From positions 704,001-768,000 of the forward strand of contig CBDAOB010000004.1 of the NCBI GenBank assembly GCA_965197905.1: a DNA stretch of 64,000 nt, written 5' to 3'. Position 1 is the stretch's first letter, and every line of letters begins with the position of its first letter. Under the pieces are notes generated by a model. That model did no database searches and was not told the DNA's origin. It saw nothing but the letters and a program-made list of their open reading frames with translations. Below, in pieces: positions 38,710-62,934 of this stretch. Both the position numbers and the translations under genes were made by a program. The stretch comes from Candidatus Latescibacterota bacterium. GTDB lineage: Bacteria; Latescibacterota; UBA2968; UBA8231.

Positions 38710-40560
38710 ATGACTGACACGTCAAGCGTCGAGGTTTTGGAAGCGGAATCCAAGCTCGCATTCAACGTTCTCCTGATAGACGACCAGCCGCTGGTTGGGG
38801 AGCAGGTGCGCCGCCTGCTTGCTCCCGAGGCCGACATCGGGTTTCACTATTGCCGCAATCCGATCCGCGCCATTGCGGCTGCCCTGGAGAGCGATCCGTC
38901 GGTAATCCTGCTCGACCTGACCATGCCGAACATGGACGGATTGACCTTGCTGAAGACGTTTCAGGCTGATGAGCAGCTGCACGACATCCCGGTGATCGTG
39001 CTCTCCTCCAAGGAGGAGGTGAAAACCAAGGCGGACGCCTTCGGGTTGGGAGCCAGTGACTACCTGGTGAAGCTGCCGGACGCGACCGAGCTAGTCGCCA
39101 GGATTCGCCGCCACTCTCTCGGCTACATTCACCTGCGGGCGTAGCGTCGCACCGAGCAGGCACTGCGTCGGGCGGAAGCGGAATCGCGAGAGGCAGCCGG
39201 CGAAGCGCAACGCGCCAACCGGGCCAAAAGCGTTTTCCTCGCCAACATGAGCCATGGCCTGCGCACTCCCCTGAACGCCATTCTGGGACATTCGCGACTC
39301 CTGCTCGAAAACGAAGCGGAGCTCTCCACATCCCAACTGCAAGCGCTGAGGCACGTAGAGGATGGTGGACGTGAGTTCCTCAAGCTGATCGACAACATCC
39401 TGAGCGTTACTCGCATCGAGTCGGGACAGCAGTTTCTCGAGCCGACTGAATTCGATGTCGGCGATCTGCTGCGCCAGCTGGAGTCCACCTTCAACGTGCG
39501 CTGCGAGCACAAGGGTCTGTCGTGGCTCGCGGAAATTGCCCTCGATGAAACCAGAGTGCAAGGTGATGGCCGCAAGCTGCAACAGGCTCTGGTGCATCTG
39601 CTCGACAACGCCGTGAAGTTCACCGAAGCCGGAGAAGTACGGTTACGAGTCACCAGTCGCGACGACCTCTACAGCTTCGAGGTCAGTGACACCGGGCCCG
39701 GGATTCCGGCGGCGCGGCGGGCGGCCGTTTTCGAGCTTTTCAACCAAGGCGAAGAAGGTTTGGAGAAAGGGGGCTCGGGTCTGGGCCTCACGATCGCCCG
39801 CAGCCACGTGGCGTTGATGGGGGGGACCTTCACTCTCGAAGACGGTGAGAACGGGGGCGTGGTGGCTTCCTTTGCCGTACCCTTGCCGAAGACTCTGACT
39901 GGGAGCCAAAGCCCCGGATCGCAAACGCGGGCGCGCCCCAAGGGGTTGGCTCCCGGGTCGGCCTTGCGCGCCCGCTTGGTGGGGAGAAGCGATAACCTGG
40001 AAATCATGACGCAGATTCTCGAGAGGATCGGAAGCGAGGTGGCGCATGTCGAGGAGCTGGGCGAGAAAGAGATGACCGGAAGCTCCGACGACTGGGATGT
40101 TATTATCATCGACATTGACACCTACAACCTCGATGCGACCAGAGCCTTGGGCAAAAGCTACACATCGCGACCGAAGCTGGTTGGATTGTCAGGGTCTTCT
40201 CTTTTGGGCCGTCGCTACCTCGATGCCGGTTTCGATAGGTGCATCGAAGTCTCCTTGCGACCGGGCCGCGTCTATGCGGAACTGGCCGAACTGCTGGGCA
40301 TCGAGTACGGATACGATGCTGTGGAAACCCGGGCGCCGGCATCGACGGACGAATTCAATCTGAAACTACCCGCCGAGTTGCGCGACAAGCTGAGCAAAGC
40401 CGCTGCAACCCACAGCATCACCGAACTAAAGAGACATATCGGCGAGCTCGAATCTCTGGGCCCTGAAGAACAGCGACTGGCCGATCATCTTTCCACTCTC
40501 GGACGCGGCTTCGACATGGCGGCCATCGCCGCCGTGCTGCGTGAGATCAACACTCAATGA
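38710..40560 (+). pseudogene. WspR-like receiver plus hybrid histidine kinase interrupted by an in-frame TAG at 39142-39144
   Basis: REC ORF 38710..39144 and kinase ORF 39247..40560 share one frame, and the coiled-coil ..ANRAKSVFLANMSH is continuous after the TAG. Confidence 0.8.
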
Positions 40561-40588
40561 GTCACCTTCACAACGGACCGAACCTACG

Positions 40589-41623
40589 ATGCGAATGATT
40601 GACCTCGATTTGAAGGATAGCAAGATCCTCGTCGTCGACGACGTACCGGCCAATCTGGACGTTTTGGTGGAGGCGCTGGACCGGGAAGGGTACAACGTTC
40701 TGGTTGCCTCCAATGGTACGACCGCCTTGGAGGTAGCGGCGTACGCCCGCCCTGACCTGATTCTTCTCGACGTCATGATGCCGGGCATCGATGGATTCGA
40801 AACCTGCCGGCGACTTCAGGCGGACCACAACCTGGAAGATACTCCCGTGATATTCCTGACCGCCAGAGACGACATCGAAGGGATCGTGGAGGGGTTCGAA
40901 GCCGGTGGCCTCGACTATATCACCAAGCCGTTCAAGAAAGAAGAGGTCTTGGTACGGGTGCGGACGCATCTCGAGCGCACCCTGCTGGCGCGCAACCTGG
41001 CCGAGCTCAACGCCCATCTGGAGCAGAAAGTGGCCGAGCGCACGCGGGAGGTGCAGCTGCGGCTCAAAGAGCTTGAAGGCAAGGATCGTATCGCCCAACA
41101 CCTGTTGACCTTCAATACCCTCGAAGAAACCCTGGCCGTGGTTCTGGAAGTCATAACCAACATTCTAAAGCTGGATAGTGCGGCCGTTTTCCTGCGCGAA
41201 AACGGAGAGCTGCAAGCTACAGCCGCCATCGGCGTGACCGATCCCGGTGCCATCATTGGCCGTTCCGAATTGACGAAATTGTCGTTTGAGCCCAACGCCG
41301 CAGCAGCCCAGTCCATCGAACAGAAATCGGCGACGATGGTGAAGGATGCCGATCTGCCAACCGCGCTCGTTCCCATTCTCCGCGATGAGGATGTGCTTGG
41401 ACTGATTCAGGTGGAGAACCACCAGAGTAAGCGAGACATCACCGATGCCGACTTGAAAACCCTCACCAGCTTTGCGTTGCAGTCAGCCGTCGCCATCACC
41501 GATGCCCAGGTGCGCCAGGATCCGGAAGCGTGGCGCGATCAGCTGGACGAGATTCTCGAGATCGAAGAGGAGCTAGAGGATTCGGAAGGTTTGGATGGGC
41601 TGAGCGCCGCAGAGGAAGATTAA
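40589..41623 (+). CDS. Response regulator: REC, coiled coil, GAF-like domain
   Basis: ILVVDD, LLDVMMP and KPF; VPI....VLGLIQVEN...D...L..FA.Q.AVAI GAF pattern. Confidence 0.85.
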   Translation: MRMIDLDLKDSKILVVDDVPANLDVLVEALDREGYNVLVASNGTTALEVAAYARPDLILLDVMMPGIDGFETCRRLQADHNLEDTPVIFLTARDDIEGIVEGFEAGGLDYITKPFKKEEVLVRVRTHLERTLLARNLAELNAHLEQKVAERTREVQLRLKELEGKDRIAQHLLTFNTLEETLAVVLEVITNILKLDSAAVFLRENGELQATAAIGVTDPGAIIGRSELTKLSFEPNAAAAQSIEQKSATMVKDADLPTALVPILRDEDVLGLIQVENHQSKRDITDADLKTLTSFALQSAVAITDAQVRQDPEAWRDQLDEILEIEEELEDSEGLDGLSAAEED

Positions 41624-41643
41624 GGGACGCGGGACGTCGGCAA

Positions 41644-44085
41644 GTGAGAATTCATCTCCACATCGACAAGCTCCATGTCGGCATGTTCGTCGAGGCGGAC
41701 GTCGACACCGCCACCGTCGATGGACAAACCCGCCATTACCTCGTATTGCGGGATGCCACCTTCAAGTCGGAATCGGGGAAGAAGCTGCGCTTGACCAAGC
41801 GCAAGCAGGCGCAGATCACCCACGCCGACGGCATGCTGATCACCTCCAGCAAGCAAATAAAGGTATTGCGCGACATCGACGTGCTCGAAGCGGTCGTGAA
41901 CACGGATAAGAGCGATGTCGTGCCCGACCTGCCGGAAGTGAGGAACGAACACGAAAAGGCCGGCAAAACGCCCACTTTCGTAGACGTGGAGGGTGCCGCC
42001 AAATCGGCAGACCAAGCTCCCATCGAGGCTGGCACTACGATTCGTCGCCGGAACTTCGGTCCGAAGAGCACCGGTTGGATGAAGGTGGAAATATCGGAAG
42101 AACGGGACAAGGCAACATTGCAGGTGTTGAGCTTTGGTGGCGACCCGCTCCTCGGCGCCTCTCACGTTTTTTCCGCCCTGCAGGAGCTCTACGGCATTAC
42201 CAACGGGCTCGACAACGATCTGGTCGAACGCCTGGCCACCCAAGCTACGGCGTCACCAAGCAGAGTGATCCGGGGCGAATTCCACGTTGCCGTCGCACCG
42301 TTTCCGGAAGGCGACGATTCCGGTCATATCGAATATACCTGCTTCGACGGGAAATCGATCCCGGGAGAACGTTCGGGAGGCGATCTCCCCGAACTGTTTC
42401 AGGGCGAATCGTTGCATCGACTATTGGATTCGAAGATCAATGTCCATCTCGCGACAGCGGGAGAGGAACTCGCGAGATTCGTACCGCCCGAAGGATACCA
42501 ACCTCCGGTGGACATTTTTGGCCAACCGCTGCGCAACACCGGTCCCGGAGCTCTGCTCAAACCCGGACCCAACGTTCGACTGCGCCAGCATGCGTATCTG
42601 TCCGAAACCATGGGGTATGTCTCCCTAAGAGATCGCGAATTGGCGGTGGTAATTCCTATCTGGATATCCTCCGATCGCATGGAAGCGCACTTCGTTTATT
42701 TCGATCACACGGAGTCCGGAGAGACCTTGACCGCGGAGAATATAGGAGGCGCGCTCAAAACCTTGCAGATCAAACATGGTGTCAGAGATTCGGCCGTGGA
42801 CGAGCTCATTGCGTCGCCCCCGTCTGGAGAGGATGCGGCATCTGTACTGCTCGCCGAGGGCTCGCAGGTGAAACCGTCTTCGCCCCCTCGGTTGGAGACG
42901 ATTTTCGATTCTGACTGGCGCAAGGGTCCGCCGGCGCGAACGGCAACAAAAGCGCTGGACGCACCGACGGGGGTCGCTATGGTGGAGGCGGACCAGCTGT
43001 TGGCGGAAGTGCGTCCGAGCCGTGATGGGGAGCCAGGGACCGATCTCCTGGGGAAGCTTATACCTCCCTCGGCGGAAGGACACGAAGTCTTGAGCGCCGG
43101 TGTCAATGTGCGGTGTGAGTGGAGCGACGACGTCGGCCGGTTCTACTCTGCCATCGAGGGTTTTGCCAAGCTGCACAAGAACAGCATTCGAGTGAAACCG
43201 GTCGCCCACATTGCAGGAAACGTGGATGAAAATATCGTGTTCGCCGATGCCGAGAAGGATGTCTATGTCACCGGCTCGGTGAGGCCTGGAGTTGTAGTGA
43301 GAGCGGCTGGCAGCATCGCAATCGACGGCATGGTGGAATCGGGTGCCCAGGTTCACTCGAACGAAGACGTGACGGTTACGAAGGGTGTTGTAGGTCGCCA
43401 GTCACAGGTGGTTGCAATGGGCGATGTAGCCACCAAGTTCGTGCAGAATGGTTCCATCGTCGCGCGCGGGGATGTCAACGTTACAAGTCACGTCGTCAAC
43501 GCCCGGATACGAGCGGGCGGCAAGTTCACGGCCGAGTCGGACGGCACCGAGCGGGGTGGTAGCGTAGTAGGAGGACAGGTATTTGCAGCCAGTGGCGTAG
43601 AGGTGGCGAGCGTGGAATCGACGCGATCGGACGTCACCCGTCTCGGCATCGCTGAAGACCCTAAGATCACGGCCCAGATAAAGAAGGTGCAACAGGCGTT
43701 GGATTTTTGTACGACGAATATTCAAAGGATTTTTCGCACTCTCGGGACTAGCGAAATAGATGTGGTCGAGCTGAAGAAATCGATCGAAAATTCACCGCCG
43801 CACAAGCGCGAACCCTTGATGCTGCTGCTCAATCAACTCAAGGGGCTCGCTCAGACGAGAGAGAAATCACTCAAGATGAAAAGCGATCTGGAAGCCCAGC
43901 AGAGTCGGATGCTCGAGGGATCTGAGATCAGAGTCGCGGGTAGGATCCACCCCGGGGTGGAAATCAGCTTTGGCAATGAATCGGTTACTACCAAGGACGA
44001 GCTGAAATGCGCCGTGTTCTCCCACGAAGCGTCAGGCATCGCCTGTCGACAGGAGGATCCGCGTTCTCGGGCAGGTAGTGCATAG
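41644..44085 (+). CDS. FapA (DUF342) family protein with DUF3391-like N-terminus
   Basis: IDKLHVGMFV, repeated G.D..G motifs, beta-helix (GSIAIDG.VE, A.GDV, GGSVVGG), coiled coil and IHPGVEI. Confidence 0.78.
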   Translation: MRIHLHIDKLHVGMFVEADVDTATVDGQTRHYLVLRDATFKSESGKKLRLTKRKQAQITHADGMLITSSKQIKVLRDIDVLEAVVNTDKSDVVPDLPEVRNEHEKAGKTPTFVDVEGAAKSADQAPIEAGTTIRRRNFGPKSTGWMKVEISEERDKATLQVLSFGGDPLLGASHVFSALQELYGITNGLDNDLVERLATQATASPSRVIRGEFHVAVAPFPEGDDSGHIEYTCFDGKSIPGERSGGDLPELFQGESLHRLLDSKINVHLATAGEELARFVPPEGYQPPVDIFGQPLRNTGPGALLKPGPNVRLRQHAYLSETMGYVSLRDRELAVVIPIWISSDRMEAHFVYFDHTESGETLTAENIGGALKTLQIKHGVRDSAVDELIASPPSGEDAASVLLAEGSQVKPSSPPRLETIFDSDWRKGPPARTATKALDAPTGVAMVEADQLLAEVRPSRDGEPGTDLLGKLIPPSAEGHEVLSAGVNVRCEWSDDVGRFYSAIEGFAKLHKNSIRVKPVAHIAGNVDENIVFADAEKDVYVTGSVRPGVVVRAAGSIAIDGMVESGAQVHSNEDVTVTKGVVGRQSQVVAMGDVATKFVQNGSIVARGDVNVTSHVVNARIRAGGKFTAESDGTERGGSVVGGQVFAASGVEVASVESTRSDVTRLGIAEDPKITAQIKKVQQALDFCTTNIQRIFRTLGTSEIDVVELKKSIENSPPHKREPLMLLLNQLKGLAQTREKSLKMKSDLEAQQSRMLEGSEIRVAGRIHPGVEISFGNESVTTKDELKCAVFSHEASGIACRQEDPRSRAGSA

Positions 44086-44157
44086 AAACGCAGAGACTCC
44101 GGTGAAAAGGCGACCCGAGTCCAGGTCCGGACGCTTCTCCCGTAAACTGACGCAACG

Positions 44158-46140
44158 ATGAAGATATTTCAAACCCAAGCGGCGAGATACGCTCTTCTGG
44201 GGGCCCTGTTTGGATGTTCGTTTCCGGCGGGTGCCATTTTGATCGATCTGTTTTTTTTGCACAATCTCGATCTGACCGTGCGCAATGTAGTCATGATACA
44301 ATCGCAGCAGCCGTTGCACTGGATCATCGATTCAGCACCGATTGTACTCGGCTTGCTGGCGATGTTCATCGGACGGCACCAGGACCGCCTAGCGACCATC
44401 CACCAGGAGCTCGAACGGGAGCAGAACCTGGTTCGAGGATTGGCGAAGTTCCCTGAAGAAAACCCCCACCCGGTACTTCGCGTTGCCGAGGACGGCGAGA
44501 TCCTGTATTCCAATCGTCCCGCTTCCGAACTCCTGCGCAATATGGCAAACGGCGGACGACTGAATTCCCAGTGGGGAGAAATCGTGATCGCGACGCTGAA
44601 AGGCGGCGACAGCTACGAAGAGGAGCTGGTCGTCGAGGACCAAACCATGTCGTTAGTATTTACGCCCGTTGTCGATATGAAATACGTTAATATCTACGGC
44701 AGAAACGTTACCCGGAGGGTACGGGCTCTGGAGGAGCTAGAGATCGCCAAGGAGGCGGCCGAAGCGGCAAACCGGGCGAAGAGCGAATTCCTCGCCAACA
44801 TGAGTCACGAGCTCCGAACCCCCATGAACGCCATTCTCGGCTACGCCCAGATCCTCGAGTCCGCCGATGACCTGCCCGTGCAGCACCGCAACTCGGTCGA
44901 GACCATAGGCGAGAGTGGCGAGCATCTTTTGTCGCTGATCAACAACATCCTCGACATATCCAAGATTGAAGCGGGACGGGAGGAGCTGAACGAGCTCCAT
45001 TTCGACCTGAACAACATGCTGCATGGACTGGCGTCGATGTTCGAGATCCGGTGTCGCCAACAGGGTCTCACCTGGAAGCTGGAGATCGCGGGTGATCTGG
45101 GCGTCGTCATCGGTGATGAGGGCAAGCTTCGTCAAATATTGATAAATCTCTTGGGGAACTCGATAAAGTTCACCTTTCAAGGTAACGTTACCTTGAAAGT
45201 AGAAGCGCCCACCGACAAGCTGTACTACTTCGAGGTGTCCGATACCGGCAAGGGAATCGGACCGGAAGCACGGAGCTACATCTTCGAACCGTTCCATCAA
45301 GAGGGAAACAGCTTCTCCCAAGGAGGGTCAGGGTTGGGACTGGCCATAAGCCGGCGATATGTGAACATGATGGGAGGTGAGCTGCAATTCGATTCCGAAG
45401 TGGGAGCCGGTACTCGGTTCTACTTCCGCGTGCCCTTTGCGCTTGGCGATCCGCCCGCGGGAGTTTCATCGCGAGATGCTTCGAGCAAATGGCAACGGGT
45501 GAAACGATTGCGCGATGATACCCCGGTCTATGCTTTGGTCGTTGATGACGTCACGACGAACCGCGATGTGATCGCTCAGATCCTGCGGTTCGTCGGCGCT
45601 GAGGTCGAAACCGTCGAGTCGGGCAGATTAGCCCTTGAGCAGGTTCGCCGAAAGCGGCCGGATATAATTTTCATGGACATTCGCATGCCAGAAATGACGG
45701 GCGTCGAGGCGATGCAGAGGTTGCGCGAAGAGCACGGAGAAGGGGCATCCAAGATTGTGGCGGTCACGGCGTCGGTGTTTGAGCATCAGAGACAGGCGCA
45801 ACTGGCAGCAGGATTTGATGGTTTTATTGACAAACCGTTGCGTGCGGGGCAGGTCTACGCCTCTATGGCAGATCTGCTGAACGTCGAGTACGAATTCGAG
45901 GCCGTTCAGCGCAGCGAGACCGCCGACTGGTCGGATTTGCAGCTTCCCGTGGAGCTCCATGAGCGCTTGCTTGCCGCCGCCGATTCTCACAGTGCGTCGG
46001 AGCTGCGTCGTAATCTTGAGTCTCTGAAGAATCTTGGCTCGAGCGGAGAGAGTCTTTTCGAGCACTTGCAGTCATTGGCCCGGCGGTATGATATGAGCGG
46101 AATCAGGTCGGTGCTAGAGGATCTTTCAGGGAACCGTTGA
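44158..46140 (+). CDS. Membrane hybrid sensor histidine kinase (2 TM, PAS, HisKA, HATPase, REC)
   Basis: FPEENPHPVLR, MSHELRTPMN, NLLGNSIKFT, DTGKG, GSGLGL and MDIRMP. Confidence 0.92.
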   Translation: MKIFQTQAARYALLGALFGCSFPAGAILIDLFFLHNLDLTVRNVVMIQSQQPLHWIIDSAPIVLGLLAMFIGRHQDRLATIHQELEREQNLVRGLAKFPEENPHPVLRVAEDGEILYSNRPASELLRNMANGGRLNSQWGEIVIATLKGGDSYEEELVVEDQTMSLVFTPVVDMKYVNIYGRNVTRRVRALEELEIAKEAAEAANRAKSEFLANMSHELRTPMNAILGYAQILESADDLPVQHRNSVETIGESGEHLLSLINNILDISKIEAGREELNELHFDLNNMLHGLASMFEIRCRQQGLTWKLEIAGDLGVVIGDEGKLRQILINLLGNSIKFTFQGNVTLKVEAPTDKLYYFEVSDTGKGIGPEARSYIFEPFHQEGNSFSQGGSGLGLAISRRYVNMMGGELQFDSEVGAGTRFYFRVPFALGDPPAGVSSRDASSKWQRVKRLRDDTPVYALVVDDVTTNRDVIAQILRFVGAEVETVESGRLALEQVRRKRPDIIFMDIRMPEMTGVEAMQRLREEHGEGASKIVAVTASVFEHQRQAQLAAGFDGFIDKPLRAGQVYASMADLLNVEYEFEAVQRSETADWSDLQLPVELHERLLAAADSHSASELRRNLESLKNLGSSGESLFEHLQSLARRYDMSGIRSVLEDLSGNR

Positions 46141-48449: not shown

Positions 48450-49691
48450 TCAGGGCACGGGTTTCGATCTGTTTTTGTAGATCTCTTCGTGACCGGGGGG
48501 AATGACCCCGCCGATCTTCAGCGCCTGTTTTCCGTTCTCGCCGGCGAAGGGACGCGCCAGAAATTTGGGTTCCTCTTCGACGAAAACTACGACGGGTCCC
48601 GTCTTTGGTGTGTCCGAACAGATGATATCGCCGGTCTTCAACGTTCGGGCTTCGCCCAGGGAGATCTGCGTCCGCCCCAGCTCGGCCGTAACCGGCATGA
48701 AGGTCTTGTTCAGACGCTGGTTGTTCTGTTGAATCAGGTCATCTTTATTCGTCTGTGAAATCCGGACATAACTTTGTTGTCCCAACCGCGGCAGGATCGA
48801 TTCGAGGGTAAAGAAGGGATAGCACAGGCTGACCAGGCCCGAGGCGTTTGTAGAGTTGACCTCGAAAGCCAGCAGGATGACGATCTCACTGGCCGCCGTG
48901 ATCTGCATGAACTCCGGGTTGGTCTCCAACTCGATGTCGGTGACCTCTACCCGCAGAATCGGCTCCCAGGTCGCTTCCAGATCTTCGATGACCCGCTTGG
49001 TGATGCGATGAATCACACCAACCTCGATCGGGGTCAGGGTTCGCGGTTCCACGCCTTTGTGGGAGCCCTTACCGCCGAAAATCCTGTCGACGAAAGCGAA
49101 GGTTACCGGCATGGCAAAATCGATGATCGCCTGCCCATTGGTGGGACCCAATGTAAACTGGTAGGAACAGGACGGATTCGACAGTGACATGATGAATTCG
49201 GCATAGGTAGTCTGGTCCACGAACGCCGTTTCCACATCCACCACGGCACGCATGGCGCCGGAAAAGGTGGAGCTCAGCAGTCGGGCGAAGTTGTCGTGCA
49301 GGTTTTCCAGGGTGCGCAGCTGATCCTTGTTCACCCTCGCCGGGTGTTTAAAGTCGTAGCTGGTGACTATTCGTTTTTGAGGTCGTCCGCGGTTCTCCTT
49401 CTTCTGTTGCATCTCCATGTATTGAGCCAAAGCCTCTCCCATCGCCAGGCGCAGCTCCTCCCGCGCCTTTTTCGATATTCTCTTGCCCTTGAGCAGGGTG
49501 TCCAGCTCCTTCAGCGCTGCCGCCTCCAACGCCTCTCCCCGTTCATTGACCGCCAAACCTGCCAGTCTCTGCAGAAAACCCGAAATTTGGCTCTCGTCCA
49601 GCTTTTGCTTCTTGAGACGGCCGTAGAAACCGTCCGACTCCTTGGATAAGAGCAGCGCATCGATTTCATCCTGAGAGAGTATGTCAGCCAT
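48450..49691 (-). CDS. fliM: Flagellar switch protein FliM (copy 1)
   Basis: ILSQDEIDALL, YDFKHP, GGKG, LETNP and C-terminal SPOA domain. Confidence 0.92.
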   Translation of the reverse strand: MADILSQDEIDALLLSKESDGFYGRLKKQKLDESQISGFLQRLAGLAVNERGEALEAAALKELDTLLKGKRISKKAREELRLAMGEALAQYMEMQQKKENRGRPQKRIVTSYDFKHPARVNKDQLRTLENLHDNFARLLSSTFSGAMRAVVDVETAFVDQTTYAEFIMSLSNPSCSYQFTLGPTNGQAIIDFAMPVTFAFVDRIFGGKGSHKGVEPRTLTPIEVGVIHRITKRVIEDLEATWEPILRVEVTDIELETNPEFMQITAASEIVILLAFEVNSTNASGLVSLCYPFFTLESILPRLGQQSYVRISQTNKDDLIQQNNQRLNKTFMPVTAELGRTQISLGEARTLKTGDIICSDTPKTGPVVVFVEEEPKFLARPFAGENGKQALKIGGVIPPGHEEIYKNRSKPVP

Positions 49692-49709: not shown

Positions 49710-51023
49710 TTAGACGTAATCGTCTCCGGTGTCGCCGCGAACTATCCTAACCTTCCCCTGCTCTTCGAGCTGCCTCACTGTTTGCACGATCCGCAGCTGC
49801 ACCTCCTCCACATCACGGCGCAGCATCCGTTCCAGCCCCTCCATGCCTTCTCGAACCGAGGTGCAAGCCCGCTCCGACATGTTGCTGAAAAATCGTTCTC
49901 GCAGTTCCTCGCCGGCCTGTTTTAGTGCGATGGTAAGATCTTTCTCATCTGTTTCGCGTAACAGAGTCTGGATTTCGGTATCCGTCATCTTGCCGATCTC
50001 GGCGAAAGTAAACATCTGATTGCGCACTGATTCGGCCACCTCCGGATCCTGCGCATCCATCTGGTTGAGAACGGTCCGCTCCACGCTTGAGCCCGTCAAA
50101 TTCAGCACGTCGGCCAGCACCTTGGGTCCGCCTACGTCCTGATCCCGACCGAGCAAGTCTCGAAGAGAAGCTTCCAAAGCTTCTTCGAGGTTCGCGATCA
50201 CCTTTTGAGGGACGTTCTCGGTAGTCGCCATTCGATATGACACGTCTGCCTGTAAACGTTCGGGCAATTGTGCCAGTACCCCTGCTGACCTGCGTGGTTC
50301 AAGCTGCGAGAGAATGAGCGCGATCGTCTGCGGGTGCTCGTTAGATAAGAAGGGAGCGATCTGATCCGCCTCCACTCTGTTGAGCATGCTGAACCCGGAT
50401 TCGGTAGAATCTATATTCCTGTCAACAAAGTGATTCGCCCGGTGTGGTCCCACCACCTTGGTCAGCAGCCCGCGGGCATACGCCGGGCCGCCGATCTCCA
50501 CGTAGTCACCAGCCACGATGCGCCGGTGCGCTGTCTCCAACGCGTGCATAGCGAGCTGATGCCCAACCTCGGGCATCTCCGCAATAGCTCGCGCGACGAG
50601 CTGAGTTTCCTCGCCCAGATGTCGGCAGACCTGGGCACCAATTTCCTCGCCCAGACCGATCAATATGGCCGCTACCAACTGTTGAGCAGTCAGATCAGAG
50701 AGCGGTCCCTCGTCCCGGCTTGCCTCTTCTCTTCGGATGATAGTTCGGACCACGGCTGCTGTTTCTTTAGCGTGGTGAAAGAGGTAGGCATGGGTGCTGT
50801 CAGCGGCGATTCCAGACGGTAGGAGAGGCGCCGAGGAGGTGTCGGGAGGTTTTGCCACAGCCTCCACGGTCTGGGGGCGCGGTTTTGGCACGTGCAGGGG
50901 TGGCATCGCGTCGACGGCAGCCTCGTCTGGGCATGTCCAGCTTGCAACCGTTTGTTTCTCTTTAAACTCGGTCGAGCCGCCCACGATGCGGGCCCCTGTA
51001 GTTTTTTGAGGCGCGGCGCTCAT
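49710..51023 (-). CDS. fliG: FliG-family protein with N-terminal extension
   Basis: [32 protein letters not shown] and DVEE.Q. Confidence 0.9.
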   Translation of the reverse strand: MSAAPQKTTGARIVGGSTEFKEKQTVASWTCPDEAAVDAMPPLHVPKPRPQTVEAVAKPPDTSSAPLLPSGIAADSTHAYLFHHAKETAAVVRTIIRREEASRDEGPLSDLTAQQLVAAILIGLGEEIGAQVCRHLGEETQLVARAIAEMPEVGHQLAMHALETAHRRIVAGDYVEIGGPAYARGLLTKVVGPHRANHFVDRNIDSTESGFSMLNRVEADQIAPFLSNEHPQTIALILSQLEPRRSAGVLAQLPERLQADVSYRMATTENVPQKVIANLEEALEASLRDLLGRDQDVGGPKVLADVLNLTGSSVERTVLNQMDAQDPEVAESVRNQMFTFAEIGKMTDTEIQTLLRETDEKDLTIALKQAGEELRERFFSNMSERACTSVREGMEGLERMLRRDVEEVQLRIVQTVRQLEEQGKVRIVRGDTGDDYV

Positions 51024-51295
51024 GAGGTCACCTCGTGATCGACGGGAAAATCGTGAAGGCGGGTGATGCGTACGGCCATGAGGTCTGTAACAACCACGAT
51101 CTCCCCTTCGGCAAAGGGCCTCCGGTTGACCAGCACACCGAAGGCCTCGCCGGCCAGTTTATCGAGCTCGATGACGTCGAACGCCTGCAGCCTCCGTACC
51201 TGACCCAAGGTCATTTCCTTGCGACCCAATTCCACCATCACTTCGGCCACCACATTGGCCAGATCCGCGCGTGGGGTGCTTTCGAGAGTTGTCAT
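51020..51295 (-). CDS. fliN: FliN/SPOA-domain protein (type B)
   Basis: VELGR, VIELDKLAGE and GEIVVV..MAVRIT. Confidence 0.82.
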   Translation of the reverse strand: MTTLESTPRADLANVVAEVMVELGRKEMTLGQVRRLQAFDVIELDKLAGEAFGVLVNRRPFAEGEIVVVTDLMAVRITRLHDFPVDHEVTS

Positions 51296-51307: not shown

Positions 51308-51604
51308 TCAGACCTGTCCCAGAACCTCGGTGAGTCGCACGCCGAAGTTCTCATTGACCGTGATGACCTCACCCCGAGCGAAGTGTTTGCCGTTGACGAA
51401 TACGTCGATGGGATCGCCCACCTCCTTGTCCAATTCGATCAGCGACTGTTCGCCCATGTCGGAGATGTCCTCCATGGTTTTCGTGGTACCACCGAGTACC
51501 ATCTGGACCATGACGGGCATATCCTCGAGCAGGTCGATATTGTCACGTGGTGCCGCCGGCTTCGGCGGAACTGCCTTTTTCTTTGGGGTCTTGCTCGTTG
51601 CCAT
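51308..51604 (-). CDS. fliN: FliN/SPOA-domain protein (type A)
   Basis: IELDK..GDPIDVFVNGK.FARGEVITVNENFGVRLTE. Confidence 0.88.
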   Translation of the reverse strand: MATSKTPKKKAVPPKPAAPRDNIDLLEDMPVMVQMVLGGTTKTMEDISDMGEQSLIELDKEVGDPIDVFVNGKHFARGEVITVNENFGVRLTEVLGQV

Positions 51605-51695
51605 TTCGCTTTGCTCCTTCCCTCGAAGTGGGTAGATGAGCCGCTCGCTTCAACAGTGTACGGAACTCCAGAGCATAATCCTATAAGGGTTTTTA

Positions 51696-56011: not shown

Positions 56012-59000
56012 CTACCGGCGTTGCGCATTCTTGATTTTTTCCAACAGCCTCTGAATCGACGCCATGTCGAAAGATTCCGCATGTTCCTGCATCGTCGTCG
56101 CCAGCTGGTTGGCACCCGGTCCTATCTCCCCTAGCTCGGCCAGCGCCTGCCGCAACTCGGTTATGTTGGCCACCGCGGCGGACTGGGTTAGACGAGTGAC
56201 TAATTCTGCAGGCAGCGAAACGCGACTTGGATCGATCGGCGCTTCCACCTTAAGCGCCGGTTCTGCCGCATCCCTATCGGAGTAAACGAATTCCACCCCC
56301 AGCAGATCTGCCAGACAACTGTAGATCTGTTCGACGCGTACCGGTTTGCCGACAAACTCGTCGAACCCCGACGACAGATAGTGCTGACGTTCGTGTTCCA
56401 ACGTCGAAGCGGAGACAGCCACCGCTTTGATCGCTGTCGTCGCTGGATCTGTCTTCAACCGTTCAACCGCCTCGTTGCCATCCATTTCCGGCATGCGAAT
56501 ATCCATGAAGACGATATCCACCGTCTCTTCACGCGCCGCCTCCACCGCTTCGCGACCGTTGACGGCTTGCACGACGTGAACGCCGATCGCTTCCAAGAAT
56601 TGCGCCAGGATGTCGCGATTCTCCTTGACGTCATCCGCCACAAGGGCGCGCACGGAGTGAGCCGGATCCAGTCCAACGATACGACTCCAGTCGCGCTCCA
56701 CTTTTGGTGGCAACACGCTCTGCGACCGGGATAATTTGATGCTGAACGAGAAGGTGGTTCCTTTTCCGACCGCGGACTCCAGCTCGAGGGTACCCCCCAT
56801 CAACTCCACCAATCGCTTCGACACCGCGAGTCCGAGCCCGGTGCCGCCGCGCTCGTACCCCGCGCTGCCCTGCTGAAAAGGCTGGAACAGCTCCTGTTGC
56901 TCATCGGCACCGATACCTTGCCCCGTGTCCGTCACCACGAACCGATAGTTGTCGGGACCCGCAGGGGTGACGTTCAAAGAAACGGAACCTTTCTGGGTAA
57001 ACTTCACCGCATTGCCCAGCATGTTTATGAGCACCTGCATGAGTTTGCTTTCGTCGCCTCGAACCGAGACGCGGCCCGGGCTCGGCAACTCGAGGCGCCA
57101 TTCGAGACCCGCTTCGCGACAGCGAAGATCAAACATTACCGCTAGGCTCTGGAGCAGCTGGTCCAGGTCGAAATCCGACTCCTGAATCACCATTCGGCCC
57201 GCTTCGATCTTCGAGATGTCCAGGACCTCATTGATCAGCTTGAGCAGATGATCGCCGCTGGTCTGGATCGTTCCCACCGCCTGCCTGTGTTTGTCGGTCA
57301 GATCCGGGCTGTTCTGCATGATCTGCGCGTAGCCGATGATCGCGTTCATTGGCGTGCGAATTTCGTGGCTGATATTAGCCAGGAATTGCGACTTGGCCTG
57401 GTTGGCCAACTCGGCCGCATCCTTGGCTTCGCGGAGTTCGGAAATCAATTGGTTCTGAGCTTCGGTGGCCTCCTGAAAATCGCTGTAGCGGGCGTAGGCC
57501 AAGTCTACGACTTCGGCGAAGTCTTGGACGCGCCCAATCTCGCCCCCGGTAAATGCGGTTCCCTGACCGCTCCATCCCCGTTGCAATACCAGCGCGCCAC
57601 GGCTGTAAGGCACGTTGACTCCCCAGATCCTGGCTTTGGTATTGAGGGTGTCATCGGGTTCTAGGGTCGCCCAGCTCGATTTTTCCTGCTCCGTCATCTC
57701 CCCATGCCAAGTCTGTGCGGAACGCCATTGTTCGATGTAGTTGTGACTGAATTCGGTTTTTGCTTCGTTTGAAAGAACCTGGAGTCCGGTCTCCTCGTCC
57801 TCGGGGCGAACAACCTGTATGGTACCAGTCGCTTCGTTCAGAACGCAGACGTAAAGCAGATCGAATCTAACCCCCATTTGACGCAATTCGTCTCCTACCT
57901 GGACGATCACCTTTTGAAGATCATCCGACCTCTTCATGGCGAGAATAGTACTGCGGACCCGCTCGAGGGCTTGCTCCGCGGAGAAGCTGCGCAACAGATC
58001 TGCCATGTCGGTGTCGTCTTTGTCGACGCTCTCGAGGATGTTACGCGTGACCGGCGTGCTGCTTATGTTGAGAATGTCGGCTACAACCTTCGGGCCACCC
58101 ACGTCCTGGTCGCCAACCAGGATATCCCTCAACGACTGTTCCAGGGCTTCTTCTATCTGGTTGATGGCGTTGGGGGTGACGCTATCCATGGTCGCCATTC
58201 GATAGGCGACATCTGCCTGCAGAGGCTCGGGAAATTGGGCCAGAAGGCCGGCAGCCTGGTCCGCACCTAGCTGCGAGGCAATTAGCGCTATGGTCTGCGG
58301 GTGCTCATTGGCCAGAAACGGCGCCAGTTGATCTGGTTCCACGTTCTTGAGCATGTAGAATCCAGCCGTCACCCTGCTGGAGACGCGGGCTAGGATCTCT
58401 TTGGCTCGGGGCGCTCCAACGGCACGGGTAACTGCGGCGCGGGCAAAGTCCATTCCTCCGGTGCTCAACCACGTTCCTGCAAGCAGATGCTGCCTGAACT
58501 CTTCCAGCACGTCGTCGCGAAGCGCTTTCGGAGTGCCCTGCAAACGGGCAATCGCCTGGGTGGTCTCCTCTATCTCGAAATCGGAGAGATGTTGCATTAT
58601 CATGCCGGACACCTCTTGGCCGACAGCGACCATCACGATGGCCGCTTTTTGAATCGCCTCTAGCCCGCTCTCTTCGGTGGATTCATCGTCAACAAGCATC
58701 GTGCTCACCAGGTTGGCCGCCTCAGCCGGACGGTTACGCATGAATTCGTAGACAGAGGTAGATTCGTCAACGTGAAACGGAGCTGAGTCCTCTGTGCGAG
58801 TCGTACCTGTTTCGAGCCGTCCCTGCTCCGTGACGGAGGGCGCGATCTCCTGCTCGGGTTGATCGTCTCGTACTGGAGAAGCTTCAGCCGCGCCTGGCGC
58901 CCTTTCCTCCTGAAGGAGGGAGAAGGCCTGTTCCCAATTCGTCGAGGACGGGTACGCTGGCACGGGTGCCATCGAACCTACCTCGCTGTGGGAGGGGGGT

Positions 59001-59083
59001 CTCCACTCCTCAACGGAAACCAGATGTAACTTGCTGCTCCTCAATCCTAGAATGCGACCCGCGGATTTCTCTGATGCAGACAT
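56012..59083 (-). CDS. FliG(N/M)-GAF-like-hybrid histidine kinase fusion
   Basis: [21 protein letters not shown] and [11 protein letters not shown], then [27 protein letters not shown] and REC (ADD, MDIRMP, KP), all in one frame. ATG at 59083 after GAGGAGG. Confidence 0.9.
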
Positions 59084-59104
59084 CTGTTCCTCCTGCCTCG
59101 TCAC

Positions 59105-59461
59105 CTATGATTCCTCACGAAGCGATTCTGACCCAATGGAATCGAGTCGCAGATCGTATGCCTGTTCCTTGCGAACGTGGAAGCGGACCAGCCTGCAAGC
59201 AATGCGATCTCCAAGCACGACGATCTCGCTTTCGGCAAACGGATGGTTGTTGGCCAGAACGGCGAACGCTTCCCCGGCTTGTTTATCCAGAACGATGACG
59301 TCGTCTGGACCCAAATCGGAAACCTCGCTCAGCGGCATGCGTTTGCGACCCATTTCGACCACCAGCTGCATACGTACGCTTCCCAGATGTTGCAGGTTTT
59401 CCGCTTCACGCCGCAGCAGGTCTGTCGCCTCGTTCGGGTTGAGTGATAAGCTTTCGTTCAT
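59105..59461 (-). CDS. fliN: FliN/SPOA-domain protein (type B)
   Basis: VEMGRK, VIVLDKQAGEAF and FAESEIVV. Confidence 0.78.
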   Translation of the reverse strand: MNESLSLNPNEATDLLRREAENLQHLGSVRMQLVVEMGRKRMPLSEVSDLGPDDVIVLDKQAGEAFAVLANNHPFAESEIVVLGDRIACRLVRFHVRKEQAYDLRLDSIGSESLREES

Positions 59462-59760
59462 TTTTCGTCCGCTCCGGAATCCAGAATCTCCGTCACTCGC
59501 ACACCGAAGCTCTCACCGACAGTCACCACGTCCCCTTTGGCGAACTGCTTGCCGTTCAGGCGAATGTCGATCGACTCTCCCACCAACCGGTCCAACTCGA
59601 TAATCGAATGTTCGTCCATTTCCAAAAGCCGGTCCAAGGTCTCCTCGGTGCGCCCCAATTCCATGCAGACCGTCACCATGACGTCCGGAATTTCGGCGGG
59701 TTTGTGCGTTGCATCGGTCTTGATTGCTTTCGTGGTCGCTTCCTGCTTCGTCCCGGGCAT
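59458..59760 (-). CDS. fliN: FliN/SPOA-domain protein (type A)
   Basis: ELGRT, IIELDRLVGESIDIRLNGK.FAKGDVVTVGESFGVRVTE. Confidence 0.88.
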   Translation of the reverse strand: MPGTKQEATTKAIKTDATHKPAEIPDVMVTVCMELGRTEETLDRLLEMDEHSIIELDRLVGESIDIRLNGKQFAKGDVVTVGESFGVRVTEILDSGADEK

Positions 59761-59781: not shown

Positions 59782-60786
59782 CTATTGGCCTTCCAATGGA
59801 TAGTCTGCCTTCAACTCTTGCGGTACCTTTCCCACGACCTGCAGCTTGATTTCTCCAGCCTCGTTCGCAAACGGACGGGCGTAGAGCTTGGGCTCGCCGC
59901 CGACAAACACGATGCAGGGGTCGGTCTTGTGACCTCGCATGCAGACCACGTCGCCCACCCGCATTCCGTCGACGTCTTCCAGGGCCAGGTCAGTGCGTCC
60001 CATCTCCACTACCAGCGGCATCTTCGCGGGGCCGAGCACCGAGCGGTTGCGCCGAGTCGTTGCCTCCCGATTCAAACGGGGGCCACGTACATAGTGTTGT
60101 TCGCCTAAAAGGGGTAGAATGGGCTCCAATGTGAAGAAAGGATAGCACATCTTGACCAATTGCTTGCTGATATGCGCTGAATTCACCTCAAATGCGATAA
60201 GGATTACGATTTCGCTGGGAGCGGTGATTTGGAGGAACTCAGGGTTGGTCTCCAGCTCGATGTCGGTGATCTTAACCTTTTGAATCGGCGCCCACGTTGC
60301 CTCGAGATCCCCGATGACGCGCTTGGCCGAACGGTGCGTGACGCCGACCTCGATCGGTGTCATCGTCCGGCCTTCGACTCCTTCCGATGAGCCCTTCCCC
60401 CCAAAAGTCCGGTCTACCAGCGCGAACACGAGCGGCAAAGGGAAATCGAGGATTGCCAGTCCGCGAGTGGGGCCCAGCGCGAACTGGTAGGAACAGGAAG
60501 GATTGCTCAAGGACATGATGAACTCTGCGTAGGTAGTCTGATCGACAAAAGCGGTATCGACGTCGACCACGCCCCGCATAGCCCCGGAGAGCGTGGAGCT
60601 GAGCAGTCGGGCCAGATTGTCGTGCAGGTTCTCAAGGGTCCGCAGCTGTGATCTGCTTACCCTTGCGGGGTGTTTGAAATCGTAGTCGGTCGCCGGCTTG
60701 CGCTCCCCTTCCTCCTTTATCGATGGTGCTTCGTGATTGTTGCTTTTCGCGTCCTCCCGCTGTGCCTTAGCGCTCTCTGACATCAT
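59782..60786 (-). CDS. fliM: FliM (copy 2) lacking the CheY-binding peptide
   Basis: YDFKHPARV, GGKG, LETNP and SPOA domain; near-identical core to copy 1; GGAGG before ATG at 60786. Confidence 0.9.
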   Translation of the reverse strand: MMSESAKAQREDAKSNNHEAPSIKEEGERKPATDYDFKHPARVSRSQLRTLENLHDNLARLLSSTLSGAMRGVVDVDTAFVDQTTYAEFIMSLSNPSCSYQFALGPTRGLAILDFPLPLVFALVDRTFGGKGSSEGVEGRTMTPIEVGVTHRSAKRVIGDLEATWAPIQKVKITDIELETNPEFLQITAPSEIVILIAFEVNSAHISKQLVKMCYPFFTLEPILPLLGEQHYVRGPRLNREATTRRNRSVLGPAKMPLVVEMGRTDLALEDVDGMRVGDVVCMRGHKTDPCIVFVGGEPKLYARPFANEAGEIKLQVVGKVPQELKADYPLEGQ

Positions 60787-60818
60787 CGATACCTCCGCTG
60801 CAAGGTGGAACATTCGTC

Positions 60819-62324
60819 TCATCCTGGATGCTGCGCGGCTCCGTCCGCATCTGGTGCCTCGCCCTGGACCGACCGCAACACGCGATAAAGCCGGTTCCGG
60901 CTCGTGCCCAGTAGCTCCGCCGCCTTCGTCAGGTTCCCATCACAATGAGCCATCGCTTTTTCTAGAACCTTCGATTCAGCCTGCAGTGCAGCCGCATCGA
61001 GATCCAGCGGCAGCTCGTCTTCAGTGCTGATCCTAGTTTCCGTGTCCGCCGCCCCACCTTTCGGCGCCACTGGAAAATTCAAATGATGCACCTCGATTCC
61101 CTTGCCGCGACTCTCTATCACTGCCCGTTCGACGACGTTCTTCAGCTCCCGCACGTTGCCGGGAAAATCGTAGGTCTCCAGGCGGCCGACCGCCTCCGCG
61201 CTCAGGTCCGGCAGGTCGCATCCCATCTCCTCGGCGAACAGCCGTGCAAAGTGATTCGCCAACAGGCCGATGTCATCCCGGCGCTTGCGAAGCGGCGGCG
61301 TCTCAACGGTGTAGCGTGCCAGACGGTAGTAGAGATCCCGCCGAAACGAGCCTTCCTGAATCCAATTCTGAAAATCGACGTTGGTCGCTGCGAGAATGCG
61401 CACATCGACGTGCCGGCTTGCGGTCGCGCCCACCGGCCACACCTCCCCATCTTCGAGCACGCGCAGCAGCTTGGTCTGCAGTGCCGGCGGCATGTCCCCA
61501 ATCTCGTCGAGGAAAAGGGTGCCGCCGTGTGCCATCTCGAAATAGCCGATGCGATCCTCGCTGGCGCCCGTAAATGCGCCGCGCCGATGGCCGAACAGTA
61601 CCGACTCTACCAGGTCTGTGGGGATTGCGCCGCAGTTCACCGGGACAAACGGTCCGTCCCGGCGCTCGCTGCCATAGTGGATCGCCCGCGCGATCAGCTC
61701 TTTGCCGGTGCCGCTTTCGCCGGTGATCAGCACCGAGGTGGTGGGGTTCTCCTGCATGAGCTCGACCTCGGCAAAAATCTTGCGCATTGTCGAGCTGTCC
61801 CCGATAAGACCTTCCAGCCCCCAGCGTTCCTCTTCGCGGCGGGAAATCATCGAGAGTTGCCCGCGCAGAGATTTGCGCATGCTGATCTCACTCTCGAGCT
61901 CCCGATTCTTCTCTTCAAGGGCCAGATGCAACCGCCGGAGTTGGATGTGCGCCGTTACCCGTGCCAGCACCTCTTCTTCCCGGAAAGGTTTGACCACGTA
62001 GTCCACGCCACCGGCCTGGAAGCCGGCGATGACGGCCTCTTTCTCGTCCCGGCCGGTGAGGAATATGACCGGGATAGCTGCGGTCTCCGGTTCAGCTTTC
62101 AGGCGTCTGCAAACCTCGAAGCCATCCATTTCGGGCATGACGACATCGAGCAGAACAAGGTCCGGATTGGCCTGCTTGGCGATCTTTAGAGCCGCAGCTC
62201 CCTCGGTCGCGACCATTACCTTGTGTCCTCTTGCTTCGAGGACCTGCAGAAGCAGTTTGAGATTTGTCGGGTTGTCATCGACGGTCAGGACTCGAAAAGT
62301 TGTGTTGACTTGATCTGCGGTCAT
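60819..62324 (-). CDS. Sigma-54-dependent response regulator (NtrC family; REC-AAA+-HTH)
   Basis: REC domain, GESGTGKE, GAFTGA, LFLDEIG, FPGNVREL and Fis-type HTH. Confidence 0.95.
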   Translation of the reverse strand: MTADQVNTTFRVLTVDDNPTNLKLLLQVLEARGHKVMVATEGAAALKIAKQANPDLVLLDVVMPEMDGFEVCRRLKAEPETAAIPVIFLTGRDEKEAVIAGFQAGGVDYVVKPFREEEVLARVTAHIQLRRLHLALEEKNRELESEISMRKSLRGQLSMISRREEERWGLEGLIGDSSTMRKIFAEVELMQENPTTSVLITGESGTGKELIARAIHYGSERRDGPFVPVNCGAIPTDLVESVLFGHRRGAFTGASEDRIGYFEMAHGGTLFLDEIGDMPPALQTKLLRVLEDGEVWPVGATASRHVDVRILAATNVDFQNWIQEGSFRRDLYYRLARYTVETPPLRKRRDDIGLLANHFARLFAEEMGCDLPDLSAEAVGRLETYDFPGNVRELKNVVERAVIESRGKGIEVHHLNFPVAPKGGAADTETRISTEDELPLDLDAAALQAESKVLEKAMAHCDGNLTKAAELLGTSRNRLYRVLRSVQGEAPDADGAAQHPG

Positions 62325-62350: not shown

Positions 62351-62367
62351 GGCAAAGGACATGCCAA
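62351..62367 (-). promoter_or_regulatory. Sigma-54 -24/-12 promoter
   Basis: Minus strand TTGGCATGTCCTTTGCC matches TGGCA-N6-TTGC (GG-N10-GC), about 27 nt upstream of the ATG at 62324. Confidence 0.78.
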
Positions 62368-62475: not shown

Positions 62476-62934
62476 TACGCCACGCATTCGGAGCACCGCT
62501 ACGCTAGGAAATCGGTACGAGGAACCAGGCGAACCCTGTTTGGAACGCACACAGTGTACGGAAGACTCGGGCAGATTCCTACTTCGCATTTCTGCTAGGT
62601 TTTCGGTACAGAGTCTGATTCAGGTCGGCAGCGAATTGAAGCGTGGACACCCTCAACAAGGATGACAGGTTTTGACAGAGACTACTGAGGTTTGGAAGAG
62701 ACACCCCCGGGAGCGGGCGCCTTCAGGTCTAGCCAATCATCTATACAATGGATTGGTATGATCGAAACGGCAACCGGCATTCCACACCGAGCACTGGTTT
62801 CCGTGCGCCAGAATACCCCCCGGTCCTGGTGTAGCAGGTTCCAGGTCATGAACGTGGGATTGCGATTGTGAAATCGTTTCAGCCGCCGGAACGTGGGTCG
62901 AGGTAGGAAGACCCCGGTCCCGGCCAACCCCTTC

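Follow-up and report, generated by a model that had tools for sequence, protein, structure and literature searches.

The two switch-protein cassettes

We analysed a stretch of 64,000 nucleotides from a Candidatus Latescibacterota genome (GCA_965197905.1, contig CBDAOB010000004.1, positions 704,001 to 768,000), here called the window, which carries two cassettes of genes for the flagellar switch proteins FliG, FliM and FliN, both on the minus strand. The stand-alone cassette has the order fliN-fliN-fliG-fliM (51604-48450), and the kinase cassette is led by a gene for a receiver (REC) and sigma-54 activator protein, followed by fliM, fliN, fliN and a fusion of fliG to a kinase (62324-56012). The tail of FliF normally anchors FliG to the membrane (MS) ring, and the original prediction had pointed to a segment like this tail in both cassette FliGs. 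In the fusion this segment lies at 58691..58753 (residues 118-138), and in the stand-alone FliG a diverged version lies at about 50727..50795 (about residues 77-99), each with two predicted helices. Both peptides quoted in the prediction were found on the minus strand, directly before the Pfam FliG_N domain (residues 148-244 of the fusion and 111-206 of the stand-alone FliG); the start given for the fusion segment, 58695, was one base short (58694).

The fusion gene (56012..59083) encodes 1023 residues from an ATG at 59083, as supported by Pfam matches, a GGAGGA ahead of this ATG and homologues; residues are numbered here in the open frame from the GTG at 59104 (56012-59104, 1030 residues). 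Its domain order is N-motif, FliF tail, FliG-N, FliG-M, ARM-C, GAF-like, HisKA, HATPase and REC, and FliG_C is absent by Pfam. An assembly chimera was ruled out, because single contigs from three runs (two samples, two studies, one possibly the source sample) span the fusion, and by homologues. The stand-alone FliG (49710..51023) has 437 residues arranged as N-motif, FliF tail, FliG-N, FliG-M and FliG-C.

The segment before FliG-N and the FliF C-terminus

The fusion segment is identical to the FliF tail of its own genome at 10 of 20 positions, with a BLOSUM score of 53 that none of 300 shuffles reached (maximum 37), and at the DNA level 46 of 69 nucleotides are identical to the 3′ end of fliF. 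An iterated profile seeded on 17 FliF tails, from which the window proteins and the stand-alone class were held out, ranked the fusion segment second among 36,361 open reading frames of the genome (E 5.9e-4), with FliF first, and matched none of eight plain FliGs. Without iteration the FliF-tail profile was weaker (rank 3, E 0.43), and an un-iterated profile of 51 tails from outside the lineage gave rank 5 and E 9.1; the HHalign comparison of the family with FliF tails reached 97.5%. Three relatives of the fusion (P0002, P0006 and P0007) match the FliF-tail hidden Markov model at E 2e-19, 5e-19 and 3e-16 and carry near-exact FliF tails, including the upstream helix, and the other fusions form a graded series. 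These sequence comparisons confirm that the fusion segment is a homologue of the C-terminus of the genome's own FliF, and what had been proposed as a mimic is instead a homologous copy of the FliF tail. An internal duplication of the EHPQ helix of FliG-M was rejected as its source, since the FliF-tail profiles select the segment and not EHPQ and since relatives also carry the upstream ETPH helix of FliF. The NCBIfam fliF model stops short of the FliF tail.

The usual Trp is absent from both segments, as had been noticed, yet this is no anomaly and Trp does not define the tail, because the last helix has a Trp in none of the 17 FliF tails of the lineage and in 31 of 51 outside tails, leaving 20 of these without it. 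At this position, occupied by Trp in many species, the genome's own FliF tail has Met; the tail matches the peptide of H. pylori FliF seen in the co-crystal with FliG-N (5WUJ_A, E 0.008), and this peptide also lacks Trp.

For the stand-alone segment, the evidence comes from its relatives. HHalign with 17 segments of the stand-alone class gave 68.6% against the 51 outside FliF tails and 95.6% against the lineage profile, two held-out members of the class (P0034 and P0037) match the iterated FliF-tail profile at E about 8e-4, and the canonical Trp is present in three others (P0039, P0042 and P0056). With tblastn, 13 of 20 inspected alignments, chosen mainly for long N-terminal reach, continue through a stop codon and pair the segment with genuine FliF tails in canonical fliF-fliG operons; the register is kept or nearly kept in about 10. 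Judging from the spacing in these alignments, the cis tail would most simply have arisen when a fliF-fliG junction was copied and the stop codon was lost. The family profile, the intermediates and the predicted fold support a tie of the stand-alone segment to FliF tails. The claim that both FliGs carry such a segment thus holds for the fusion on its own sequence and for the stand-alone FliG by way of its family and predicted fold, its own sequence not being significant alone.

AlphaFold2 models of fusion residues 104-250 and stand-alone residues 63-212 had mean pLDDT values of 85.9 and 87.1, and in both the segment forms two helices (pLDDT 85-95). The fusion model (12-108) aligns to the whole FliG-M of 3HJL (107-189; Z 10.2, 2.3 Å, 81 aligned) and to FliG-C of 8WO5 (233-316; Z 10.4, 1.9 Å, 83 aligned), and the FliG-N chains 5TDY_B and 5WUJ_B align to it only from residue 43 on. 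The stand-alone model (14-111) aligns to 4FHR_B (236-318; Z 8.2, 2.3 Å, 81 aligned), with Z 8.0-8.2 and 2.3-3.5 Å over single-chain FliG-M and FliG-C domains, and 5TDY_B aligns to it only from residue 47 on; the Z values of both models are middling for helical domains, and the models may echo solved structures. Since the co-folded FliF-tail:FliG-N domain resembles FliG-M (excerpt of PMC7355467), the superposition of segment plus FliG-N on FliG-M places the segment in the position of the FliF tail. Both segments are predicted to complete the split FliG-N domain into a FliG-M/-C-like domain, and the groove of the cassette FliG-N would be filled in cis and not free for the tail of an MS-ring FliF. 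This is the role that had been proposed for a built-in FliF tail: in the models the segments are neither disordered nor outside the groove, and confident helices fill the missing part of the split domain.

A test in trans lent weak support, in that the stand-alone segment scored 0.58 against its own FliG-N and the best of three controls 0.02. The mark used was reached by 116 of 157 solved pairs and 2 of 215 mismatched pairs, with only 18 solved pairs and both mismatched ones at 0.60 or below. The runs agreed in at least 95% of contacts and the pLDDT of the partners was at least 67, and a pass may come from likeness to solved complexes.

The FliF-C:FliG-N co-crystals from T. maritima (5TDY) and H. 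pylori (5WUJ) have the same two helices, the same register and the domain predicted here. Unlike in these complexes, the cassette FliGs hold both halves in one chain, without the transmembrane or ring-building part of FliF, and for this reason they would be untethered from the membrane; in eight cassette proteins no membrane-spanning stretch was found (no hydrophobic 19-mer above 1.5). Full-length FliF-FliG fusions, made in the laboratory in Salmonella and Vibrio (excerpt of PMC6445934; PMC10941966) or natural (P0023 and P0024, about 865 residues), likewise have the FliF tail in frame with FliG-N, but they retain the entire MS ring and work in the motor, whereas the cassette FliGs keep about 20-35 tail residues and lie outside the flagellar cluster.

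Flagellar genes and cassettes in the genome and its relatives

The proposal that these cassettes work without fliF was half right, as the cassettes contain none but the cell has fliF and other flagellar genes. A genome lacking fliF is ruled out by one fliF in the flagellar cluster on C5; among L001 and L021-L038, the 17 lineage loci that show both genes have fliH immediately after fliF, without an intervening fliG. Elsewhere or near the cluster we found a motA-like match, two CheW-domain matches and ten flagellin matches, and the genome has five fliM and six plain full-length fliG (C2:412667, C3:590105, C3:760894, C3:987776, C5:314303 and C5:1997700) that lie amid unrelated genes. The six plain FliGs have no segment, keep their torque charges and are 72-97% identical over the M and C parts, and similar expansions of plain fliG occur in relatives. 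A third extended FliG lies on C1, in a fliN-fliN-fliG-fliM cassette. Frameshift-like breaks in motA/motB and hook genes (C5, about 2485600-2489600) are probably long-read errors.

Scattered switch-protein parts were also seen outside the cassettes, namely a FliG-N-only protein (C4:1125906-1126502), a lone fliM (C5:1329397) and two lone fliN (C5:1306952 and C5:1628739). Lone FliG-C domains fused to other parts lie at C5:1435007-1436221, L052:11551, L067:9200, L077:13268 and L085:4044, several of them beside cassettes. A protein of 128 residues (C5:1711414-1711800, minus strand; L174/L177) has two hydrophobic stretches and a FliF-tail-like end; it ranks second in the genome against the 51 outside tails (E 0.0028), also matches the C-terminal region of FliF itself and has small homologues in 20 of 131 genomes, all of family f1. 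It is possibly a ring-less membrane anchor for FliG.

Named homologues of the fusion are labelled Candidatus Latescibacterota or Gemmatimonadetes, and 17 of the 27 proteins returned by the homologue search, the query's own cluster included, are FliG-kinase fusions; a search for longer proteins, limited to 1781-5000 residues, gave no match. Eighteen of 20 loci picked for long FliG frames are fliM/fliN cassettes, all 18 with the segment by eye, and the remaining two are plain, non-cassette loci without it. FliG adjoins in 9 of 20 loci picked on fliM alone, and in these loci the segment was seen by eye in all ten FliG open reading frames with upstream sequence, only two of them at E<0.01. Among the 48 new clusters reaching the segment, 15 match at E<0.01 and 24 at E<1, as against none of 16 others with upstream sequence. 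The cis form was not seen outside the phylum among the matches listed (80 loci). L032 and L040 (no intact tail) and L068 (no EHPQ) were dropped, and related genomes are not independent in any of the distribution counts. In a set of 140 genomes FliM was matched in 53 and FliF in 48, all within the 53; of the five with FliM only, G018 carries a piece of fliF and the other four have flagellins. In one genome (G139, 92% complete in 170 contigs) a cassette and flagellins occur alongside no fliF match and a weak FlhA match only.

In a quick tree, from which the duplicates L051, L056 and L058 were left out together with L068, the FliG part of the kinase falls among plain FliGs, the cassette clade has long branches and the kinases require seven label changes. 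Near-exact tails beside eroded ones, together with these label changes, hint at repeated capture or conversion, and the cis tail may have had one single origin. The long branches and the many plain fliG, fliM and flagellin copies would fit functionless genes in decay, left over from an expansion of flagellar genes throughout the lineage. We consider this very improbable, as genomes of four families have conserved the gene order, the N-motif, the segment and EHPQ, the kinase motifs are intact and the segment region is covered by about 51 of the best 150 clusters (50% identity).

Retained, lost and added parts

The FliG part of the fusion begins with a conserved motif, R-x-L-G ... W-x-P-P (58961..59053), identified by profile and alignment; the top three matches to its profile in the genome are the three cassette FliGs. 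Its W-x-P is reminiscent of enterobacterial FliH; a FliH mimic found no support (HHalign 0.3% against 16 lineage FliH starts, and no relevant PDB chain). FliG-N (58373..58663, PF14842, E 6e-29), FliG-M with the EHPQ motif (residues 257-327, 58124..58336, PF14841, E 1e-29) and ARM-C (57983..58099) follow, and the likeness to FliG stops at about residue 372-374, directly before the MFXF hinge. In the aligned kinases it ends at the same place, two or three residues before the hinge. According to excerpts of two studies, this hinge amplifies the motion of FliG-M into a reorientation of the torque subdomain (PMC7355467), which turns about 180 degrees on switching (PMC11087270). In the fusion the torque domain is replaced at the hinge by a GAF-like-HisKA-REC module. 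The candidate GAF-like sensor or linker domain (57425..57982) resembles Atlas GAF clusters (0.88-0.89) and gave no match in the Pfam search. HisKA (H580), HATPase_c and REC (56318..57397) were identified by Pfam and the homologue alignment, and intact HEIRT, DTG, GTGLG and DIRMP motifs mark the protein, by sequence, as a hybrid histidine kinase.

EHPQ is invariant in 16 of 16 aligned fusions, and the EHPQ-linked Arg that binds FliM is kept in all 28 full-length cassette FliGs. The stator-facing charges (equivalents of R281, D/E289 and R297) are kept in 8/8 plain FliGs versus 8/28 cassette FliGs, five of the latter eight being FliM-FliN-FliG single chains; this count excludes L051 and L058 (the loci of P0011 and P0030), P0030 with its frameshift, and any FliG lacking a match to MFXF. 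The stand-alone FliG keeps the R281 equivalent and has Gly for D289 and Leu for R297 (on the role of R281 and D289, excerpt of PMC6445934). The single chains (P0011-P0015; L051:6423-9197) have the order FliM-FliN-(N-motif)-(FliF tail)-FliG and 800-940 residues, a whole switch protomer per polypeptide. Compared with the flagellar C-ring, the cassettes have the same three protein families and keep the EHPQ and FGG interface motifs and ARM-C, but they lack the MS-ring anchor, have eroded torque charges or a replaced or lost FliG-CC, and add the N-motif and fusions to kinase, REC and FGE-like domains.

The added parts vary among cassettes. REC is fused in front of FliM in L076:8733, L083:7564 (two in tandem) and L088:1550, each followed by a CheY-binding-like peptide, and likely also in L072, L074, L084, L086 and L087. 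FGE-sulfatase-like domains are attached to the cassette FliN (L050, L055, L056, L068 and L085) or FliG (L052, L076, L083 and L088), some cassette FliGs end before MFXF with nothing attached (the C1 copy, L059, L065 and P0034), and the kinase P0020 has lost the segment together with FliG-N, a joint loss to be expected if the segment exists for FliG-N. The FGE-like cargo, the bare ends before MFXF and the loss in P0020 could suit a mere scaffold, in which the segment, after duplication of the fliF-fliG junction, keeps FliG-N folded and FliG/FliM/FliN cluster or localise cargo (kinase, FGE-like domain or receiver) without a switch-like signal. The fusion point is constant in the aligned kinases, directly before the hinge, and several cassettes have a FliM with a fused receiver domain; both argue against this explanation, which we hold to be unlikely.

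In the kinase cassette, the two fliN-like genes (59105..59461 and 59458..59760, both PF01052) are preceded by fliM (59782..60822), whose product has the FGG loop and lacks the N-terminal LSQxEIDAL peptide, and by the REC and sigma-54 activator gene (60819..62324). The latter is the first gene of the operon in the window, in L050 and in L056 and not in L085. A sigma-54-type -24/-12 motif (62352..62366, minus strand) lies about 30-40 nucleotides upstream of the activator gene; such a motif also precedes the L056 operon, not that of L050, against a background of 0.006 per 340 nucleotides. The stand-alone cassette comprises, beside its fliG, a fliM with an LSQDEIDALL peptide (48450..49691) and two fliN-like genes (51020..51295 and 51308..51604, both PF01052). 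An alternative-sigma-like motif, GGAWT-N14-CCGTACA, stands upstream of both window cassettes (about 62551-62582 and 51653-51684, minus strand). These are two of its five matches in the genome, only 2 of 21 related cassettes share its core, and as a post hoc, poorly conserved find it was not used as a shared promoter. GTACCGATTTC repeats lie between this motif and the sigma-54 motif, and a sigma-70 and terminator scan stayed at chance level. Beside the stand-alone cassette, the region 39247-46140 (plus strand) holds two further hybrid kinases with a C-terminal helical tail resembling that of the fusion, a REC-GAF-like protein and a FapA-family gene; FapA is also close to cassettes in L058 and L067.

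A cytoplasmic kinase with a co-encoded sigma-54 activator is, by sequence, the trait of the FlgSR type, and the FlgSR, FlrBC and FleSR checkpoints (excerpt of PMC7064773) share with the kinase cassette a cytoplasmic histidine kinase and a sigma-54 activator in connection with FliF/FliG. There the kinase FlgS is a protein of its own and binds to the rotor once assembled, whereas here the FliF tail and FliG sit inside a hybrid kinase with its own FliM and FliN. The cassettes could be motor-docked sensors or modulators: a self-completed FliG would enter the real C-ring by FliG-FliG stacking and by way of FliM, without requiring a FliF tail, the kinase would inform the sigma-54 activator of the assembly of the rotor or the state of the switch as a fused checkpoint, and the full-length forms would tune or uncouple the motor. 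In keeping with this, every genome in which a cassette was seen has flagellar genes, FlgS both binds assembled FliF/FliG and activates a sigma-54 regulator (same excerpt), a sigma-54-like motif lies ahead of the genome's flgB operon and the FliG part of the kinase groups with plain FliGs. We nevertheless regard this as rather unlikely, as an own FliM and two FliN per cassette would be superfluous for a guest subunit, the kinase occurs in 4 of 168 genomes though dozens are flagellated, and a 650-residue kinase in place of FliG-CC would presumably face the stator and the membrane.

We lean, with slightly better than even confidence, towards an MS-ring-free switch-complex module used for signalling, its function being predicted. 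The cis copy of FliF's last two helices would complete FliG-N and so free FliG from the MS ring, as the models predict. The cassette FliG, its own FliM and two FliN would likely form a soluble switch complex that is separate from the MS ring, with oligomerisation through ARM-M/ARM-C stacking on FliM/FliN. Its input may come from a phosphorylated receiver domain that acts at FliM and that relatives carry fused to it as REC-FliM, and in the kinase version hinge motion or assembly state may set kinase activity towards the co-transcribed sigma-54 activator. Several findings weigh against this signalling module. No cassette was found in a flagellum-free genome among the 140, and for that reason the cassettes may depend on the motor; the kinase fusion is patchy, its four genomes being from four genera of one family. 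Eight of the 28 cassette FliGs retain the torque charges and most retain FliG-C, the GAF assignment is a lead only, and the CheY-binding peptide is absent from the kinase-cassette FliM of the window, L050 and L068 and present in L056 and L085. For the cis models there was no negative control, and the solved complexes are familiar to AlphaFold2. The stand-alone segment taken by itself matches the FliF tail at 5 of 20 positions, which 15 of 300 shuffles equalled and which is not significant, with E 74 for the iterated profile and rank 1847 for the 51 outside tails.

A bolder version of the signalling module is possible, if tentative. The flagellar switch of Latescibacterota would have turned into a motor-free allosteric amplifier, in which a soluble FliG/FliM/FliN ring or arc makes a cooperative clockwise/counterclockwise transition, driven by a receiver at FliM, and swings the kinase at the MFXF hinge, giving switch-like sigma-54 control. 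Under the same tentative version, the toolkit would also include REC-FliM, FGE-FliN and a ring-less two-helix membrane anchor with a FliF tail.

In a full-text literature search, with most subscription journals outside its scope, no publication dealing with FliF-tail-FliG chains from nature, with FliG-kinase fusions or with cassettes of this kind came up. The cassettes are real, conserved and built from known parts, and are possibly a new kind of signalling device. In them the FliF-tail:FliG-N split domain occurs naturally within one chain, and as a family they seem to have moved away from the motor. If the signalling module is correct, the cooperative switch of the C-ring has been reused as a signalling device, which is not described in the literature searched. 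Soluble, self-templating parts with a kinase read-out would bear on how the C-ring assembles and switches without an MS ring, and on how much motion the MFXF hinge transmits.

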